From: Microgenomates group bacterium
GTDB taxonomy: Bacteria > Patescibacteriota > Microgenomatia > UBA8517
Assembly: GCA_049301455.1 (NCBI GenBank)
Contig: JBAQKY010000025.1
Location: forward strand, 1 to 60,500
DNA length: 60,500 bases
Reading direction: 5' to 3'
Part shown: positions 1 to 60,500 of the stretch, one piece after another
How positions within the stretch are numbered: the stretch's first letter is position 1
How the letters are laid out: the number at the start of each line of letters is the position of its first letter
Notes under the pieces: model-generated
The model's input: the letters and a program-made list of their open reading frames with translations, nothing else
Database searches by the model: none
What the model was told of the DNA's origin: nothing
Program-made: the position numbers and the translations under genes

Positions 1-333
1 GTCTTTATATCATCAGGTTTGGTCTTTTTGTCTTCGTTTCTTTTGTTTTTACAAGGCCTTTGGTCAATTGAACTTGAGAAGGAATTTGATAAAGGTATAT
101 TTGTTATGTCGCTAGTATCAAGTTTGATCCTAACAGAGCTTGCAATCTTAATATTCTTTTGGCCTGTTACTGTGGTCGTAGGCTCACTTTTTCTAACCAG
201 TGGGGTATACTTACTTTTAGGTTTGGGACAGGCTAAACTTGAAGATAGATTGTTTCCAGGCGTGGTTCGTGAGTATTTAACTGTTGGATTAATTGTTTTA
301 ATTGGAATGTTTTTTGCTACACGTTGGGGATAA
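1..333 (+). CDS. Integral membrane protein, C-terminal part. The frame is open to the window edge; track ORF 19..333 starts at an internal TTG.
   Basis: Frame 1 has no stop from nt 1. The product is a series of hydrophobic helices (FLLFLQGLW..., LILTELAILIFFWPVTVVVGSLFLTSGVYLLLGLG). TAA stop at 331-333. Confidence 0.5.
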   Translation, partial: VFISSGLVFLSSFLLFLQGLWSIELEKEFDKGIFVMSLVSSLILTELAILIFFWPVTVVVGSLFLTSGVYLLLGLGQAKLEDRLFPGVVREYLTVGLIVLIGMFFATRWG

Positions 334-435
334 GGGGAGAGAGGGTAGTATCCCATAATATATCCTATAATTATTACTTCACTTTTCACGACGTCCTATA
401 AGTTTTCACGAAATGATACAGTTTGTACTAGTTGT

Positions 436-444
436 TGTGGATAA
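436..444 (-). promoter_or_regulatory. Perfect DnaA-box consensus (TTATCCACA, read on the minus strand)
   Basis: The plus strand reads tgtggataa at 436-444. It is the only perfect copy I found in the 334-1196 ORF-free region. Function is unproven. Confidence 0.3.
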
Positions 445-577
445 CTTAATTTGTGATTAGAGAGAAGTGATGTGTATGTACGACAGTCAGATGAAAGTAA
501 TATCCATAGTGTTCTTCTATTGGATATGTTAATGGTAATTGATATGTATTCTTCGGTTTAGCTGTCTATAAATTGTA

Positions 578-589
578 TGTCGTACAATA
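578..589 (+). repeat. 12-nt motif TGTCGTACAATA, copy 1
   Basis: Identical 12-mer recurs at 1427-1438. The core TGTCGTACA also occurs inverted at 477-485. Here it lies inside the palindrome ATTGTA-tgtcg-TACAAT. Confidence 0.6.
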
Positions 590-1121
590 ATACTTTTACG
601 ACGCATTATATATGGTTGAGAGTAGTGCAGTATTTTGTTAATTTCTTAAAACTTCTTTGTATATGTTGATTATTTTCTCCTATATGCATGATATTTTTGT
701 TACTTTTCCCTCTAATTTATCTTTCTATAGGGATTTGTCTGTTTGAGCCTAAAATCTTTCTATAAGTCCCCTAAATTTTAAAAATTGGAGGAGTCCTGTA
801 TTGGGCCGAAAATACGGGAATATATTTGGATGATGTACTAGTCGGCTTTTGATTTAGACAGGCCTTAAAATCGATCACAGAAGGTCATATTAAGCTCATA
901 TTTTAGCGACCTTTATTGTATGTTTAATAGGCATTAGTTGCTTTAACAAATTAGTTTTTTAATGGATAAACAATGTAGTTAAAAAGTTTTACTTATATAG
1001 ATAAATAATTTATTAAAATTTAAAAAATATTATTTCATATTATTTAAGTAAATTATTAATTTAAACTTTTTATATGTAGTAAGTTGGTAAAATGGCTGTT
1101 ATTAAATTTTGTCTTAAAAAT

Positions 1122-1147
1122 AGGGGACTTCTCCCCTCTTTTGTTTT
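1122..1147 (+). terminator. Rho-independent terminator-like hairpin, usable in both directions
   Basis: AGGGGA-cttc-TCCCCT is followed by cttttgtttt on the plus strand. On the minus strand the same stem is followed by atttttaag. Confidence 0.5.
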
Positions 1148-1162
1148 CATCCGTGAAAACTT

Positions 1163-1190
1163 TTGACAAATTATATTTTTAGTATATTAT
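1163..1190 (+). promoter_or_regulatory. Sigma70-type promoter: TTGACA, 16-nt spacer, TATTAT
   Basis: TTGACA at 1163-1168 and TATTAT at 1185-1190. An ATG sits exactly 6 nt downstream at 1197, which is leaderless geometry. Confidence 0.5.
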
Positions 1191-1196
1191 TCGACC

Positions 1197-1418
1197 ATGG
1201 TTGAGAAGATACATATTACGACCGGTAAGGTTGATGGTAGTACCTATATATTATTCACAAACGATACACCTCCTCCAGTCACTTGTTTTAGGTATTGTCA
1301 CTCTGACAAGTTTGTTTTAAAAATGCATAACCGGAGACAAAGCTGCGAGGTCCCTGTGCAAGTTGTTGTTCCAAGTCCTTGGACCCGTTGGTTAAAAGAA
1401 AAAGAGAAAAACAAGTAG
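1197..1418 (+). CDS. Hypothetical 73-aa protein, possibly translated from a leaderless mRNA; could instead be a structured 5' leader of xerC
   Basis: The ATG coincides with the predicted TSS of the 1163-1190 promoter. No family recognised. Codon usage looks less AT-biased than neighbouring genes, so coding status is uncertain. Confidence 0.3.
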   Translation: MVEKIHITTGKVDGSTYILFTNDTPPPVTCFRYCHSDKFVLKMHNRRQSCEVPVQVVVPSPWTRWLKEKEKNK

Positions 1419-1426
1419 GGTAACAG

Positions 1427-1438
1427 TGTCGTACAATA
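1427..1438 (+). repeat. 12-nt motif TGTCGTACAATA, copy 2, abutting the xerC -35 box
   Basis: Identical to 578-589. It ends 1 nt before TTGACA (1439-1444), which is an operator-like position. Confidence 0.6.
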
Positions 1439-1467
1439 TTGACAGACTTCCTCAAAAGATTTATAGT
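1439..1467 (+). promoter_or_regulatory. xerC promoter: TTGACA, 17-nt spacer, TATAGT
   Basis: TTGACA at 1439-1444 and TATAGT at 1462-1467. The ATG lies 9 nt downstream, giving a leader of about 2-3 nt. Confidence 0.55.
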
Positions 1468-1476
1468 AAATTATAG

Positions 1477-2409
1477 ATGGATTCTGCCACATCAAAAAAT
1501 TCTGAAATATCAAAAAAAATAGATGAATTCTTAGATTATTTATCTGTTGAAAAAGGATGCTCCCCTCTTACAATTAGAAACTACAGACACTACCTAACAA
1601 GACTTCTTGAGTGGTTAATTACAAACAAAAAACACACAGATATTAAATCTATTAACCAAGACATTATCCATGACTTTAGGGCATATCTAGCAAAAATTGG
1701 TTTAGGCAAGAAGACACAAGGGTACCATGCTATTGCGCTACGATCATTTTTAAAGTGGTTACTGCGTAATGATTATCAAGTAATGGCACCTGACAAGATT
1801 GAACTGCCTAAAATACCAGACAGACAAGTTAAGTTTTTAAGTGGTGAACAAGTTGACAGACTGTTAAATGCCCCTGTTATGAATGACATACAAGGCTATA
1901 GGGACAAAGCCATACTTGAAGTTTTGTTTTCTACAGGACTTCGTGTATCTGAACTAACGGGATTAAATATAGAAAAAATTGACTTTGAAAGACGTGAGTT
2001 TGGCATAACAGGAAAAGGAGGGAGAGCTAGGGTAGTTTTTCTTTCAGCTCGTGCAACTGAGTATTTAAAAAAATATTTGAATGAAAGAAAAGATCATTTT
2101 AAGCCATTGTTTATAAGACATAAAGGAAAATTGGACCCAATCACTCCAGATGAAAAAATGAGACTCACTCCCCGATCAGTTGAACGTTTGGTAAAAAAAT
2201 ATGTACATAAGATGAAACTTCCAGTTGAAGCTACTCCACATACAATGAGGCACAGTTACGCTACTGATTTATTGGTTGCAGGAGCTGATATTAGGTCAGT
2301 TCAGGAGATGCTGGGGCATAAAAATATATCAACAACACAGATTTATACTCATGTAACGAACAAGCAACTTCATGATATCCACGAAACCTTCCATGGGAGG
2401 GGGAAATAA
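1477..2409 (+). CDS. xerC: Tyrosine site-specific recombinase, XerC/XerD family
   Basis: N-terminal SAM-like domain (LDYLSVEKGCSPLTIRNYRHYL). Catalytic signatures are GLRVSEL, HTMRHSYATDLL and LGHKNISTTQIYTHV (R..HxxR..Y). Confidence 0.9.
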   Translation: MDSATSKNSEISKKIDEFLDYLSVEKGCSPLTIRNYRHYLTRLLEWLITNKKHTDIKSINQDIIHDFRAYLAKIGLGKKTQGYHAIALRSFLKWLLRNDYQVMAPDKIELPKIPDRQVKFLSGEQVDRLLNAPVMNDIQGYRDKAILEVLFSTGLRVSELTGLNIEKIDFERREFGITGKGGRARVVFLSARATEYLKKYLNERKDHFKPLFIRHKGKLDPITPDEKMRLTPRSVERLVKKYVHKMKLPVEATPHTMRHSYATDLLVAGADIRSVQEMLGHKNISTTQIYTHVTNKQLHDIHETFHGRGK

Positions 2410-3415
2410 TTTTGTTATACTTAATTCTGTGAAAAATATACTTTCTTCTCCATACAAACTTTCTGCATTCATTGGAATAATTTTTGTAACAGGTATGGCT
2501 TTGGGTGCTGTTGGTTATACAAAATTTTTTAAGAAGTCAACACAATCAGCAACAAATAAAATTGTAACTAACTATCCCCTACCTCAAATAATTGAAGAAA
2601 AAAGAGAAACAAGCAAAGCGGCCAAAACTTTTAATATTCTTTTAACTGGTCATGGTGGTGCAGGACATTCAGGTGGAGGTTTGATGGATGCCATTTTGGT
2701 TGTAAACGTTAATTTAACAGATAAAAAGGCAAATTTGATATCTTTCCCCCGTGATTTTTGGTTCTCTGGTCACAAAATAAATGCTGATCCATCACTTAAA
2801 GATGCCTTAACTGGTGTAACAGGTTTACCAATTTCAAATTCTATCGCAATTGATTTTAACTCCTTTGTAAAAATGGTTGATTCATTGGGAGGTGTAACAG
2901 TTGATGTAAAGAAGGCCTATACAGATAACTTCTACCCCGTCAGGGGCAAGGAAAATGAACTTTGTGGATTCTCAAATGAAAAAATTGAAGAAGTACACAA
3001 ACTATATACTGGCTTTGAACTGGAGAAACAATTTACTTGTAGATATGAAACTATTTCATATAACGTAGGATTACATGAGATGAATGGTGAAGAGGCTTTA
3101 AAATACGTTAGGAGTCGTCACGGAGGCAGTGATTTTGAAAGGTCACATCATCAATTTGAAGTATTAAAAGCCATACTTCAAAAGGCAAATATATCCTCTG
3201 TTGGTAATGCGCTAGGCTTTGTTAAAACAGACTTAACACTAGAGAAGATTGAAGAGATGTTGTCCGAAATTGGAAATCCACTTGAATACGCAGTTTCATT
3301 TATTAATCTATCAGACCAAAATGTTTTACAGAATAGTAAAAGTACTCAGGGAGCTTATATCTTAATTCCTAAAGACGGAGTAAATATAAAAGAATATATT
3401 AAAGATAATTTGTAA
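2372..3415 (+). CDS. LytR-CpsA-Psr (LCP) family cell-envelope phosphotransferase; start uncertain (ATG 2372 or 2393, or GTG 2429)
   Basis: N-terminal TM segment followed by LCP motifs: MDAILVVNVNLTDKKANLISFPRD and EEALKYVRSRHGGSDFERSHHQ. Confidence 0.85.
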   Translation: MISTKPSMGGGNNFVILNSVKNILSSPYKLSAFIGIIFVTGMALGAVGYTKFFKKSTQSATNKIVTNYPLPQIIEEKRETSKAAKTFNILLTGHGGAGHSGGGLMDAILVVNVNLTDKKANLISFPRDFWFSGHKINADPSLKDALTGVTGLPISNSIAIDFNSFVKMVDSLGGVTVDVKKAYTDNFYPVRGKENELCGFSNEKIEEVHKLYTGFELEKQFTCRYETISYNVGLHEMNGEEALKYVRSRHGGSDFERSHHQFEVLKAILQKANISSVGNALGFVKTDLTLEKIEEMLSEIGNPLEYAVSFINLSDQNVLQNSKSTQGAYILIPKDGVNIKEYIKDNL

Positions 3416-3435
3416 AGATTATCTAATGATGAAGA

Positions 3436-4185
3436 TTATCTGATTTCGTATGAAAGACTTACTGTAACTGATATTTCTGTCTCTCCTGGAGTTACATTTG
3501 CAATTTCTGCTTGATCAGCGGACCCACCAAATGGCATTTCCTTTGTATACGATATTGGCCTTGGATAGTCCATTCCAAATGATTCAGAAACATTGATTAC
3601 TTTACCTAGTGTAATACCTGAAGCTTTTGCTAATCCTTCTGCCTTATTTTTTGCTAGTTTTACTGCTTCTTCTCTGGCTTTTTGTGTATATTCATCTTTT
3701 GTCTTTTCATTTACTTCAAAACTTATATTACCGATTACATTAGCACCTGATTCTGTAGCTATAGTTAGTGCATCATTTACCAACTCAAAATTTGTTATTT
3801 TAACTTCGTAATTAGTTGAAACTCTATATCCATTTATTTTATATGGTGAATTAGAATAGTCATATTCTGGATTAACACTGTAATTTGTTGTTTTAATGTC
3901 TTTCTCGTCAATTCCCAATTTCTTTAATGCATCAGTCAATGTTTTTGACTTTTTGTTTACAGAGTCTTGAACTTGCTTTAAATTTTGTCCCTGACTGTCA
4001 ATGCCAAATGAAACCTTTGCGATGTCAGGAACAACTGCAACCTTTCCAGTTTCTGATACTACCATTGGTTCACCTTTGGTCTGAGTTAAAACAGAAATTG
4101 GAAGTGACGGTCCAAACTTTGAATATACAAAAAGAAGGATAAAGAAAATTATTATACTACCAATGAATTCTACTCTTTTCTCCAT
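3436..4185 (-). CDS. SIMPL / DUF541 family secreted protein (26-kDa periplasmic immunogenic protein-like)
   Basis: Signal anchor, then GYRVSTNYEVKI...ANVIGNISFEV...KAREEAVKLAKNKAEGLAKASGITLGKVINVSE. Start placed at Met13 of the track ORF because a -10 box lies 6 nt upstream of it. Confidence 0.8.
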   Translation of the reverse strand: MEKRVEFIGSIIIFFILLFVYSKFGPSLPISVLTQTKGEPMVVSETGKVAVVPDIAKVSFGIDSQGQNLKQVQDSVNKKSKTLTDALKKLGIDEKDIKTTNYSVNPEYDYSNSPYKINGYRVSTNYEVKITNFELVNDALTIATESGANVIGNISFEVNEKTKDEYTQKAREEAVKLAKNKAEGLAKASGITLGKVINVSESFGMDYPRPISYTKEMPFGGSADQAEIANVTPGETEISVTVSLSYEIR

Positions 4186-5072: not shown

Positions 5073-5663
5073 TTATTCATCTGAAGGTAGATCGAGGGGG
5101 TTATACTGATAGCTGATTTCATTATTTTCAACTTTAATACCAGAATTTAGGGCTTTTGCTCGCATCAAAACCGTACCTGCATCTTCACCTGCTGTATAAA
5201 TAATTCTTGCGTTGTAATCCCCATCGTTTTGTGCTCCATCTCTGCTAAGCTGTAGCCATATATTTCTTCCTATACCTGGTGGTGTCGCAACAACACGTGC
5301 CTCATTTGGGTGAGCAATGGGGTCTACTGCGTCTGCCAAACAGACTGTAAATTCGGTTATGTTGGGTATATTTATATTCCTTCCTAAATTAAAGTCACTC
5401 GAATACCTTGAATGCTCATCGGGAATATCATCGTGTCGAGCTTGTTGTCCACTTACATCATGAAACCTCGAATTTTCTAACCCTCCAGATATAAATATTT
5501 CAGCCTTTGGTGACTCGTTCTCAGGAGTAAAGATTTTACGGATTTCCTCTTCCCATTGATGTTTTTTACCCTCCCAAAAGGTCTGCAACTCAACTCGTCG
5601 TTCCTCATCAGTTACGCCGAAAGTTATTGCGTGTCCTTCATTTGTGGTTTGGTTATCGAACAT
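5073..5663 (-). CDS. Hypothetical protein, 196 aa, no signal peptide
   Basis: Intact ORF ending 12 nt downstream of gyrA. G+C is visibly higher than in neighbouring genes. No family recognised. Confidence 0.55.
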   Translation of the reverse strand: MFDNQTTNEGHAITFGVTDEERRVELQTFWEGKKHQWEEEIRKIFTPENESPKAEIFISGGLENSRFHDVSGQQARHDDIPDEHSRYSSDFNLGRNINIPNITEFTVCLADAVDPIAHPNEARVVATPPGIGRNIWLQLSRDGAQNDGDYNARIIYTAGEDAGTVLMRAKALNSGIKVENNEISYQYNPLDLPSDE

Positions 5664-11366: not shown

Positions 11367-11900
11367 TTATTTGGAGAACTTTTCAGAATATCTTGCTACG
11401 CACTCCATTATGATTTTCCATGCATCTTCTTTATTTCCCCAACCTTCTACTTTTGTGCTTCCAGGTTTTTTGAGATCTTTGTAGTGTGTAAAATGATGTT
11501 CTAATTTCTCCATCAATCTCTTTGGAAGATCTGTAATATCATTAATTACATTTCCTTCATTTCTATCATCTTCTGGAACACAAATTATTTTGTGATCATT
11601 TTCTCCATCATCAACAAAATTTAAAATTCCAATTACTTTTGCTTTTACTAAAACTGCCGTTGGTAGTGGTTCTGTTGTAACAATTAATGTATCAAGTGGG
11701 TCATTGTCTTCGTCCCATGTTCTTGGAATAAATCCATAATTAACAGGTTTTGCAAATATTTCTGGTTCTACTCTATCTAATACAAAAATACCAAGTTCTG
11801 TGCTGTACTCAATTTTGTGCATTGAACCTTTTGGAATCTCAATGAAGGTGTTTAATGTTTTGTTTTCTTCTCCGTATGCAATGTCGTGTACAAAATTCAT
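11367..11900 (-). CDS. ppa: Inorganic pyrophosphatase, family I
   Basis: Motifs IEIPKGSMHKIEY, YGFIPRTWDEDNDPLDTLIV and DDGENDHKIICVP. Confidence 0.93.
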   Translation of the reverse strand: MNFVHDIAYGEENKTLNTFIEIPKGSMHKIEYSTELGIFVLDRVEPEIFAKPVNYGFIPRTWDEDNDPLDTLIVTTEPLPTAVLVKAKVIGILNFVDDGENDHKIICVPEDDRNEGNVINDITDLPKRLMEKLEHHFTHYKDLKKPGSTKVEGWGNKEDAWKIIMECVARYSEKFSK

Positions 11901-11938
11901 AGTGTAAGTATATTATTGAATCACTTTCAAATCAATAG

Positions 11939-12175
11939 TTATCGCTCAGGGATTCCATATCCCATTAGTCCTCTTCTAATCATCCGTGTTGCGTCGGTTA
12001 GCCATTGTTCTGGGTCAGTACTAAGTAGTGTAGGAACCCAATTGCCATCTTTTTCTTCAAAAGAAAAACCTTTTTGAAACCTAATTCCGTCTTCTTCGAT
12101 AAATTGTAATGTTGGATCAAAAGTTGGCAAAGTTTTTGGTTTTAATCCTCTTGTAATTCGTGATGCCTTTCTCAT
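11939..12175 (-). CDS. Hypothetical small protein, 78 aa, from internal Met27 of track ORF 11939..12253
   Basis: Starting at Met27 removes the 68-nt overlap with the gyrB 3' end. No family recognised. Confidence 0.4.
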   Translation of the reverse strand: MRKASRITRGLKPKTLPTFDPTLQFIEEDGIRFQKGFSFEEKDGNWVPTLLSTDPEQWLTDATRMIRRGLMGYGIPER

Positions 12176-12185
12176 ATTGAGAGTA

Positions 12186-14661
<2,476 letters not shown>

Positions 14662-52310: not shown

Positions 52311-52337
52311 AAATTACTCCGTATTTTCGGAGCTTTG

Positions 52338-52408
52338 TGGACCTAGGGAGAATCGAACTCCCGTTACATGACTGCCAGCCACGTGTCCTACCATTGAACG
52401 ACAGGCCC
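52338..52408 (-). tRNA. tRNA-Ala (anticodon GGC), CCA not encoded
   Basis: Manual cloverleaf: acceptor GGGCCUG/UAGGUCC with the G3:U70 Ala identity pair, anticodon loop CUGGCAG and T arm GGGAG-UUCGAUU-CUCCC. Confidence 0.85.
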
Positions 52409-52426
52409 AACATAACTAAAACCTTG

Positions 52427-52499
52427 TGGACCCCCCGAGACTCGGACTCGGAACCTATTCAACGTCAATGAATCGCTCTACCAATTGAGCTAAGGGTCC
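52427..52499 (-). tRNA. tRNA-Val (anticodon GAC), CCA not encoded
   Basis: Manual cloverleaf: acceptor GGACCCU/GGGGUCC, D arm GCUC-AAUUGGUA-GAGC, anticodon arm AUUCA-UUGACGU-UGAAU and T arm CCGAG-UCCGAGU-CUCGG. Confidence 0.8.
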
Positions 52500-59464: not shown

Positions 59465-60019
59465 TTATTCTCTGTTTTCTCCAACTCTTAACCCTTTAAT
59501 GTCACCGATAAGTTTTACAAGAATTGTATGAACTTCTTTTAATCCATCTCTAATTTCATTGACTGAGGTTCTAACTTCTTCAAACATCTCTTTTGGATCT
59601 CCGTCAACTAACATTGAATCGATTTTGTCTTGAAGCTTTGTAATTTCAATTTTTACTAATGCAAGCTTTTGTTTTGCTTCATCTAATGACTCTTTGATTG
59701 GCTCAGTTTTGATATCGTTTTCGCCTTCTTCAATTTTTGTAATTCTTGTTTCAATTCTTGCTATTAATTTTTCAATTCTATCTGTGGTTGCCTCAAGTCT
59801 GACAATCATTTTGTTTGAAAAGTTTAGGATTCTTTCTTTTCTAACTGCGTTTAGCTTCTCAATTCTTTCTGTTTTCTTCTCTTCAATCATAGTTCTAACC
59901 TGTTGTCGTTTTGGATTTGGAGTTGCAGAAGGTGTGGATTCTATTGCCATTACATTTGGAACTGAAACAAGGCTAGTTAGAAGTAGGCTAAATATAACTA
60001 AAGAATTAGTAACCTTCAT
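59465..60019 (-). CDS. Hypothetical secreted coiled-coil protein, 184 aa
   Basis: Signal peptide (SLLLTSLVSVPNVMA) followed by heptad-rich sequence. Confidence 0.55.
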   Translation of the reverse strand: MKVTNSLVIFSLLLTSLVSVPNVMAIESTPSATPNPKRQQVRTMIEEKKTERIEKLNAVRKERILNFSNKMIVRLEATTDRIEKLIARIETRITKIEEGENDIKTEPIKESLDEAKQKLALVKIEITKLQDKIDSMLVDGDPKEMFEEVRTSVNEIRDGLKEVHTILVKLIGDIKGLRVGENRE

Positions 60020-60295
60020 AAATTAATACTATACAATCACCATCAAAATTGCAAGTGTGGTGAAAAATACAATTATGGGTATAAAAAGTAGAAAAACACC
60101 TAATGAGTCTTTCTCATGTTTTTTAAGTGTGTGTATTGCTTGCATAACTAAATAATATCACAAATTATTGTGCAGATCTACGAAACTGCTAGAACCTATT
60201 TTCAAAACTCATTTTGAAAATAATTTTATCTGCACCAATCTAACTTCGCAAAGTTATTTTACCATGAAATGGCAAACTTGTTTATCATGTGTTGC

Positions 60296-60500
60296 ATTCT
60301 CCAAGGGAGGGGTCAAAGGGGAAGGAATTGGAGAATGCTCGTGTTTCTCTGCTCGCCGCTTCGCGGCTCGCAACCACAGTCGAATCTTCCGCTCCAGGCC
60401 TCCACTCGCTTCGCTCGTTTCGGCCTTCCGCTTACCCACTGTACTACCAAAGGGGAAAGCCCTTGCGAGGGCTTGACGGTATACCGTCAGGTACTTTACA
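60296..60500 (-). ncRNA. GC-rich structured RNA, class unresolved, truncated by the window end; strand call tentative
   Basis: Hand counts give 34, 37 and 36 G+C per 60-nt line over 60301-60480 (57-62%), against 17 per 60 at 60001-60060. Stacked hairpins: GACGG-uaua-CCGUC; GCCCU-cgca-AGGGC; a 9-bp GCAUUCUCC...GGAGAAUGC stem. On the minus strand, two hairpins have GAA triloops flanked by tandem G.A pairs (ACGAGC-GAA-GCGAGU and UGCGAGCCGC-GAA-GCGGCGAGCA). Confidence 0.6.

Follow-up and report, generated by a model that had tools for sequence, protein, structure and literature searches.

The 60,500-nt stretch of a Microgenomates contig analysed here (JBAQKY010000025.1, positions 1 to 60,500; hereafter the window) ends in a GC-rich island, at positions 60296-60500, which we interpret, with a probability of about 0.65, as part of a large and ornate non-coding RNA of a new class, present in multiple copies and so far found only in Microgenomates (Woesebacteria and Microgenomatus). 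The window contains a single copy of this element, represented by its AT-rich lead-in and about its first 205 nt, i.e. the 5' third on the plus strand. An initial annotation, made from the letters of the window, had proposed either a divergent housekeeping RNA or a new class. The second alternative is retained, as no Rfam family matches the element, of which at least 35 copies were found, and its fold covaries among copies. Coordinates refer to the window throughout, and L-numbers (L002, L003, L014, L141 etc.) designate homologous loci or contigs.

A GC-rich element repeated in low-GC Patescibacteria

When the base composition was counted, 17/60 positions were G or C at 60001-60060 and 34, 37 and 36/60 over 60301-60480, exactly the jump reported in the initial annotation. 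For the whole island the count was 116/205, the G+C fraction climbing from about 0.30 to 0.59-0.62 within 60296-60500, in a window whose overall value is 0.339. The duplicated motifs that had been noted, CAAAGGGGAA at 60314 and 60448 and CTTCCGCT at 60386 and 60425, were both read in the sequence. The island had also been described as cut by the window edge, and homologous copies indeed contain about 300 further bases. The extension of the contig that had been called for was carried out through homologous contigs and revealed a GC-rich element of 470-570 nt, preceded by an AT-rich lead-in of about 130 nt.

A 25-mer taken from the island retrieved two metagenome contigs, L002 and L003, in which the GC-rich stretch runs for about 470-525 nt. 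An exact 38-mer had no match in GTDB genomes, but shorter conserved motifs did match. A scan of one genome for each GTDB species with two conserved motifs gave 18 and 26 loci; 2 of the 26 were chance matches, and nearly all the others were located in low-GC metagenome-assembled genomes (MAGs) of the candidate phyla radiation (CPR). A looser pattern, CCAAGTGCT..CAGCACTTGG, returned chiefly chance matches and only four new true copies, and a further contig was found through a spurious predicted protein matching a translated open reading frame (ORF). By nhmmer and a covariance model, 30 complete 3' domains were collected, for at least 35 copies overall, in about a dozen low-GC Patescibacteria MAGs (at least 12 by motif scan). 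The named hosts are Candidatus Woesebacteria (at least 3 MAGs), Candidatus Microgenomatus and 'Patescibacteria group'. The Woesebacteria MAG MFD02832.bin.1.153 carries nine copies, of which five are long, three short and one truncated. A full copy measures 470-570 nt and has about 50-60% G+C, for about 30-34% in the host genome. Since the window is syntenic with a Candidatus Woesebacteria MAG (locus L014), its source is a low-GC Patescibacteria genome.

The element was also observed in AT-rich, CPR-like context in third-party annotation (TPA) MAGs labelled 'uncultured Gammaproteobacteria', 'Micavibrio', 'archaeon' or 'Actinomycetota' (L004, L006, L008, L009, L013, L015, L016 and L021-L023, and likewise L027, L031-L033, L035 and L036). 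The taxonomic labels or the binning of these MAGs are probably wrong.

Compensatory substitutions maintain the fold

The 3' domain was tested on a covariance-model-based alignment of 30 copies comprising 51 pairs and 1473 pair cells. Canonical pairs filled 95.6% of these cells, and both-side changes were found at 20 of the 51 pairs. None of 500 column shuffles reached the observed values on any measure, and slid partners gave 30-44%. When the alignment was made with MAFFT only, 9 compensatory pairs were found. In the middle domain, helices H1 and H3 taken jointly (17 copies) were 86% canonical versus 22-46% with slid partners (H1 alone, 89.6%), and pair 4/17 of H1 is GC in 6 copies and UA in 6. 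Compensatory pairs thus exceed both the shuffled and the slid controls, the general hallmark of a structured RNA, and the fold is maintained by compensatory substitutions.

Furthermore, full copies folded better than dinucleotide shuffles, with z-scores of -3.3 to -9.1 (16 of the 18 tests gave values below -5). This was not so for the isolated 207-nt fragment of the window (z of -0.85 on the plus and -1.34 on the minus strand). The profile HMM and the covariance model also matched the opposite strand weakly (21-38 bits), because the start of the 3' domain is a near-perfect hairpin: its first ~118 nt (e.g. L031:7217-7331) come close to a perfect long hairpin.

The sequence is also constrained, and its conservation places the signal well outside what chance would give. 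The window fragment is 91-97% identical to copies in other organisms. Compared with Woesebacteria L014, its nucleotide identity is 93.9%, for 65% and 39% in the syntenic DUF192 and 184-aa proteins, respectively; the element sequence is thus conserved far above the neighbouring proteins.

Protein coding, the reading suggested by ORFs of 102 and 61 aa spanning the island (60168..60476 on the plus strand and 60254..60439 on the minus strand), finds little in its favour beyond their existence. ORFs on both strands are expected for GC-rich RNA genes in AT-rich genomes, and the initial annotation had regarded these two as artefacts. In agreement with this, only 2 predicted-protein clusters among 5.8 billion matched the ORF translation, and the variation from copy to copy is compensatory in the stems. 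Moreover, as the linker and 5' domain differ between copies, a reading frame from an upstream start is not preserved. A coding gene or pseudogene is consequently given next to no credence, and the earlier view of a structured, non-protein-coding, RNA-type element is upheld by the compensatory stem variation and the near-absence of protein matches.

Comparison with known RNA and protein families

No relevant match in Rfam 15 was obtained at E≤10 for 60296-60500 on both strands, nor, at the gathering score or E≤10, for full-length copies with either of the two 5'-domain families. The Rfam search recommended in the initial annotation, run on both the fragment and full copies, hence gave no confident match to a known family. 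In the AT-rich flank, only chance matches appeared (snoZ5, mir-2063, CRISPR-DR45, VqmR and similar), the weak microRNA and CRISPR-DR matches at 60199..60220 being chance matches to an AT-only linker hairpin. The GOLLD and ROOL covariance models were not among the matches at E≤10, nor at the gathering score on 18 loci.

The housekeeping alternative had been based on short minus-strand resemblances to tmRNA (GGAAGAUUCGAC) and to RNase P RNA (GGCCU..AGAU..GACUGU..CAGA). ARAGORN, also recommended, detected no tmRNA in the window, L002 or L003 and reported no tag peptide. Neither tmRNA nor RNase P RNA models gave an Rfam match at E≤10 on either strand, complete copies included. Both candidates are further rejected as the element has no T-arm, CCA end or tag ORF and possesses variable 5' domains, short variants and several diverged copies per genome. 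To our knowledge, tmRNA or RNase P genes have never been found as nine diverged copies per genome, the number reached here. The divergent housekeeping RNA has therefore been abandoned, and a divergent tmRNA or RNase P RNA is considered extremely improbable.

A group I or group II intron lacking an ORF, or the guide RNA of a transposon (HEARO/omega RNA or bridge RNA), would account for a multi-copy, GC-rich, ornate fold of about 0.5 kb with mobile-element neighbours. A GGGGTCAA motif, together with a CCGCAAT/ATTGCGG helix, bears some resemblance to the P4-P6 region of group I introns, which is no more than a lead. However, full copies gave no match to the Intron_gpI, group II or HEARO models at E≤10, and the element is intergenic, not inserted in a host gene. 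None of the inspected copies was noticed to have an ORF for IscB, TnpB, an IS110-type protein or a reverse transcriptase beside it, a minority of the listed ORFs, ten in all, having been scanned against Pfam. HEARO/omega and bridge RNAs adjoin an IscB, IsrB, TnpB or IS110-type gene; neither TnpB nor IscB was found among these ten. Nor was a variable guide-like segment identified. We regard this explanation as improbable.

Outside cellular genomes, IMG/VR contained no exact-motif match, blastn against 50,697 phage records retrieved nothing, and plasmid collections gave no match. Phage genes were not seen near the copies, serine-recombinase islands notwithstanding. No earlier description of the element was found in the open-access or bioRxiv literature.

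Modular architecture

Read on the plus strand, the element consists of a small hairpin (hp1), an AT-rich linker, a variable 5' domain, a middle domain, a second linker, a 3' domain and an A-rich tail. Copies are modular: the 5' domain varies, and the middle and 3' domains are conserved.

The left boundary of the repeated unit is formed by a conserved AT-rich lead-in (60169..60202), 97-100% identical to L002, L007 and L013. It includes hp1, whose stem (60172-60175/60186-60189) closes the loop ATCTACGAAA (60176-60185) and is followed by TAGAACCTATTTT. The stem occurs as GCAG/CTGC, GAGCG/CGCTC, GCGCC/GGCGC and GAGCCC/GGGCTC, while the TACGA of the loop and the flanking GAAC are fixed. After hp1 come GAACnTATTTTA and an AU-rich linker hairpin, which in the window is AT-only (TTTTCAAAA-CTCA-TTTTGAAAA, 60199..60220); other copies have a different AU-rich hairpin there. 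Other identities were considered for hp1. An integron attC-like site and an extracytoplasmic function (ECF) or sigma-70 promoter within it were rejected, as spacings and consensus do not fit, and an IS200 end was rejected as the IS200 hairpins of the same MAG differ from it.

In family 1, the 5' domain starts with helix P1 (60294..60338), formed by the arms GCATTCTCCAA (60294-60304) and TTGGAGAATGC (60328-60338). Its arm types are fully compensatory (GCATTCTCCAA/TTGGAGAATGC versus GCAACAA/TTGTTGC), and L019 has a chimeric P1 with both types. The P1 loop (60305-60327) is a 23-nt purine-rich sequence, GGGAGGGGTCAAAGGGGAAGGAA, identical in 21 of the 24 family-1 copies retrieved; L029, L032 and L034 show a one-base difference. 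Two or three modules of the form GCTC(G/A)-stem-TTC-stem-CTCGC follow. Module a (60351..60371) reads GCTCG-CCGC-TTC-GCGG-CTCGC; its tandem U.C/C.U mismatch on the plus strand corresponds, on the minus strand, to tandem sheared G.A pairs with a GAA triloop. The stem of this module is found as CCGC/GCGG, CTGC/GCGG, GCCAC/GTGGC, GCTCCGC/GCGGAGC and CCC/GGG, and the module recurs elsewhere in the element and in an isolated sequence termed module X. Module b (60397..60425), invariant in the window-type 5' domain, has the order GGCC ... ACTCGC-TTC-GCTCGT (60404-60418) ... GGCC and the same architecture of tandem mismatch and triloop. The two minus-strand hairpins of this architecture described in the initial annotation are those at plus-strand coordinates 60351-60371 and 60404-60418. 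That annotation had also pointed to pseudoknot potential, and the invariant loop at 60305-60327 is in fact complementary, through GGGGT..AAG.GGAAGG, to CCTTCCGCTTACCC at 60424..60437. RNAalifold pairs CCTTCCGCTTACCC with the P1 loop on both strands. This pairing is not kept in the second 5'-domain subtype, and the pseudoknot is proposed tentatively, from complementarity.

Next, hairpin M1 (60459..60472) reads GCCCT-TGCG-AGGGC; its TGCG loop is conserved, with at least 5 compensatory stems (GCCCT/AGGGC, GGTAGT/ACTACC, CGC/GCG, CGTC/GACG and GCC/GGC). M1 belongs to the middle domain together with H1, H2, H3 and others. H1 (60473..60490, TTGACGG-TATA-CCGTCAG) is the first helix of its conserved part. 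The window ends after H1 and the 5' strand of the long-range helix H6 (GGTACTTTA, 60490..60500), whose partner, TAAAGTACC, lies past the window end; all 9 pairs of H6 form in L002, L003, L007, L010, L014 and L034. The linker before the 3' domain is AT-rich and variable (0 to about 60 nt). The highly conserved 3' domain, of about 200 nt, comprises helices A-E as a long arm and then a three-way junction closed by CCTGCCC/GGGCAGG, and the unit terminates in the A-rich tail GAAnAACAnAAC.

A second 5'-domain family is without P1 and begins with GTGAACGCTTACGAACAAATTCGAAC. Short variants contain only the 5' domain, and their ending resembles the reverse complement of the 3' terminus of the long form. 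In addition, small hairpin modules occur in isolation: module X, and dom5 fragments in L025 and L039.

Neighbouring genes and rearrangements

All copies are intergenic. At seven loci, a tRNA gene or operon, different each time, starts 8-70 nt away from the hp1 end (Val-Phe-Gly, Ala, Pro, His, Gly(tcc), Gly(gcc) and Lys), always on the minus strand of the element, whereas about 0.4 such adjacencies were estimated to occur by chance. At the other loci, the neighbour on the lead-in side is usually a gene that starts there, also on the minus strand. The lead-in end thus preferentially abuts tRNA 5' ends or other gene starts. An rRNA operon leader was ruled out, no rRNA being located beside any complete copy.

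In the window, the gene next to the lead-in end encodes a 184-aa protein (59465-60019, minus strand). A good sigma-70-like promoter, TTGCAA-17-TAGTAT, was found on the minus strand at 60020-60060, ending about 6 nt ahead of the ATG of this gene, and a similar layout exists in L012 (TTGATT-17-TATAAA, about 10 nt ahead of a serine recombinase ATG). The spacing in the window suggests that the mRNA of the 184-aa gene may be leaderless or near-leaderless. Other genes of the window code for a DUF192 protein, an IMS/DinB-family polymerase (Pfam PF00817) and several small secreted proteins. Tandem tRNA-Val(GAC) and tRNA-Ala(GGC) genes with encoded CCA ends (52337-52499, minus strand) are the sole Rfam matches of the window. 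On the other side of the element, strong, canonical plus-strand promoters were observed 20-40 nt past the A-rich tail (CTTGACT-17-TAGTAT and TTGACA-17-GATAAT) in the right flanks of L029, L035 and L020 and of L033 and L039, leading into conserved downstream sequence.

Several features of the copies recall a non-autonomous mobile or repeat DNA element, similar to repetitive extragenic palindromes (REP) and bacterial interspersed mosaic elements (BIME), miniature inverted-repeat transposable elements (MITE) or palindrome-associated transposable elements (PATE). Such an element would be moved by serine recombinases or IS200-type Y1 transposases, its hairpins acting as single-stranded DNA or recombination sites. 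Up to nine copies occur per genome and the smaller modules occur alone. Many copies are at contig ends, and the Logan contig of the source organism, reached through the neighbouring protein, includes no more than the first 25 nt of the island; assembly breaks of this kind are typical of repeats. The neighbours identified by Pfam include serine recombinases, IS200 Y1 transposases, SNase and others, and large serine recombinases or IS200 transposases are near several copies. In short-variant islands, the order is SNase-like protein, cargo gene, short element, hp1, module X and large serine recombinase; beside the long copies L008 and L019, large serine recombinases adjoin the tRNAs. Exchanges between copies are also apparent. 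L002 and L003 have the left flank and the 5' two-thirds in common but differ beyond that point. In L007 and L010, it is the right flank that is common, with different P1 types and left tRNAs, and L141 contains two inverted copies with duplicated ThrRS-BipA-tRNA-Ala flanks. Together with the chimeric P1 of L019, these junctions indicate that copies recombine with each other. Finally, the minus strand contains GCGAAGC mini-hairpins, C-GNA-G triloops and tandem G.A pairs, which are the most stable DNA hairpin motifs according to established thermodynamics, and in the 3' domain G.U pairs are as frequent as A.C.

Other observations contradict the repeat-DNA explanation. The unit begins with TGTGCAG... 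and ends with ...GGGCAGG and the A-rich tail; these boundaries are not inverted repeats, and the flanks show no target duplication. The IS200 ends in the same MAG are unlike hp1, and no recombinase or transposase is consistently adjacent. Paralogues are 75-90% identical and differ by compensatory changes, which indicates that each has been kept under selection for its fold and did not arise by recent transposition. The element resembles an RNA in its long-range helices, multi-way junctions and A-rich linkers, and the position is syntenic in the window and L014, which are distant relatives. On balance, a mobile or repeat DNA element is an unlikely explanation, though the most serious competitor of the structured RNA.

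Some details of these rearranged loci were recorded. The ~4-kb inverted duplication of L141 (a JGI contig; 141-4034 and 11739-14633) contains ThrRS, a 69-aa ORF, BipA, tRNA-Ala and the lead-in and 5' domain of the element, and has a long and a short copy of the element at its limits; it reflects either a real inversion or duplication mediated by the element or a chimeric assembly. Module X, about 65 nt, GC-rich and with a GCTTCGC mini-hairpin, forms an inverted repeat flanking a large serine recombinase gene (L012:2430-2497 and 4035-4097; L018:3091-3153 and 5207-5274). The 3' end of this gene overlaps an antisense tRNA gene, tRNA-Ser in L012 and tRNA-Leu in L018, and the module X pair may represent an att site or delimit a segment able to invert. 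In L018 (3189-5307), an IS200-type element (Y1 transposase, 144 aa) lies within the serine recombinase gene and disrupts it; identical copies of this insertion sequence are present in L017 and L020. The L018 copy has its 5' domain divided by an AT-rich insertion of ~210 nt (~2700-2930), and related sequence, inverted, lies beside other copies (L017 upstream of 7948; L020:6140-6230), which suggests a second, smaller MITE-like mobile repeat. In L019 (2790-2880), two direct repeats of a tRNA 3' fragment (..TTACCATTAAACTATACCCGCAT..) between the serine recombinase gene and the element look like an attL/attR-type scar of integration into tRNA-Gly.

Orientation of the element

The initial annotation favoured the minus strand on the basis of its hairpins. 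These hairpins stand; the preference is neither strengthened nor overturned, as the evidence is divided about evenly. For the minus strand, there are at least 5 conserved tandem mismatches (5'-GA-3'/3'-AG-5', in CGAG contexts), C(GAA/GCA/GGA)G triloops and many GNNA tetraloops. Furthermore, the tRNAs and most flanking genes are co-oriented with this strand and no recognisable promoter separates the element from the tRNA, as would be expected if the two were transcribed together and then separated by RNase P. For the plus strand, A accounts for 42% and G for 14% of the unpaired 3'-domain positions; A-rich unpaired positions are usual for structured RNAs. The A/C-rich linkers, independent cUGCGg hairpin caps, some UNAC-type loops and the purine GGA/GGA internal loop of P1 type A point in the same direction, as do G.U pairs in H1/H3 (21 cells versus 7 for A.C). 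Over all hairpins, the G.U:A.C counts are 60:40. Alifold energies are -232 (plus) and -225 (minus) for the full length, and -29 (plus) and -39 (minus) for the 3' domain; z-scores on nine copies showed no consistent strand difference. We lean slightly towards an element on the plus strand, divergent from the tRNA. The minus-strand arrangement, in which the element would share a transcript with the downstream tRNA until cleavage by RNase P, is put at a little under even odds.

Interpretation

The structured RNA has to be weighed against several observations that count against it. The multiple copies, the contig breaks at the element and the chimeric copies are what a repeat element would show. 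The strand signals conflict, G.A pairs, triloops and co-orientation speaking for minus and linkers, caps and the G.U pairs of H1/H3 for plus. In the 3' domain, G.U (19 cells) is about as frequent as A.C (21 cells), each at about 1.3% and together below 3% of the paired cells. Such Watson-Crick-only pairing is unusual for RNA, and the scarcity of wobble pairs would fit selection on both strands or on single-stranded DNA. Scans of either strand also gave no convincing sigma-70 promoter or intrinsic terminator.

If the element is the non-coding RNA that we favour, it would be transcribed and, like GOLLD and ROOL, serve as a scaffold of folded RNA, with or without a protein partner. Of its parts, the invariant 23-nt loop is the most promising candidate for a functional contact surface. 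The copies also serve as recombination substrates through which flanking DNA is reshuffled. A more detailed model, which we hold to be speculative and rather doubtful, describes a Patescibacteria ornate RNA with up to nine paralogues, acting as a giant 5' leader of tRNA operons or other genes that is released by RNase P and builds an RNA-only or RNA-protein assembly via the 23-nt purine loop, both strands or a recombination DNA form being also selected.

Large ornate bacterial RNAs are very rare, and each class has led to unexpected biochemistry or architecture. Weinberg et al. 2017 (PMC5737381) place no RNAs other than ribosomal RNAs, GOLLD and group II introns above ROOL in size and complexity, and GOLLD and ROOL form RNA-only nanocages (PMC12286853). 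No such class was found described for the CPR in the open-access and bioRxiv literature. An RNA of about 0.5 kb in several copies is a large cost for small genomes (the sole near-complete contig among the matches has 744 kb), which implies that it has an important function specific to this lineage, perhaps connected with tRNA expression or genome rearrangement. In practice, the family accounts for assembly breaks at such loci and supplies a covariance model for annotation, and its strong covariation and modular 5' domain make it a well-behaved target for structure determination.

Relation to known systems

The tmRNA and RNase P genes are, like the element, GC-rich structured RNA genes in AT-rich genomes with which it has a few short resemblances. 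They differ by their defining domains and model matches, none of which the element possesses, and by the several copies of the latter per genome.

REP/BIME and MITE elements are likewise multi-copy and intergenic, with GC-rich palindromic modules that provoke rearrangements, and Y1 (IS200-like) transposases are present in the genomes of the element. However, REP and MITE units are shorter than 300 bp, with terminal inverted repeats and target-site duplications. The unit described here measures 0.5-0.65 kb, has compensated long-range helices and junctions in a conserved domain order, and lacks both of these terminal features.

OLE RNA resembles the element as a large, ornate, chromosomal bacterial non-coding RNA with highly conserved nucleotides. 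In contrast, OLE is single-copy, belongs to a conserved operon with oap genes in extremophilic Firmicutes, and gave no match here.

ROOL (Rfam RF03087) is an RNA of about 580 nt with many multistem junctions, found near tRNA islands, possibly co-transcribed with tRNAs and with no known protein partner (PMC5737381; PMC12286853). The element is similar in size and also adjoins tRNA genes. It differs by the absence of a covariance-model match, by the hosts of ROOL (Firmicutes and relatives, and phages) and by its several copies per genome, which are unreported for ROOL (PMC5737381; PMC12286853).

GOLLD (Rfam RF01998) is an ornate RNA of more than 500 nt with a conserved 3' part, a less conserved 5' part and a variable linker, often located by tRNA genes (PMC12286853; PMC5737381). 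The element has no sequence or structure match with GOLLD. Furthermore, phages and prophages are the main hosts of GOLLD. The element had no match in the viral, phage and plasmid collections searched and forms up to nine chromosomal paralogues per genome in Patescibacteria. Nevertheless, when read on the plus strand, it too combines a variable 5' domain with a conserved 3' domain, and it is adjacent to tRNA genes at the seven loci described. In our best reading, the family would be nearest to GOLLD and ROOL in kind, though not in sequence.

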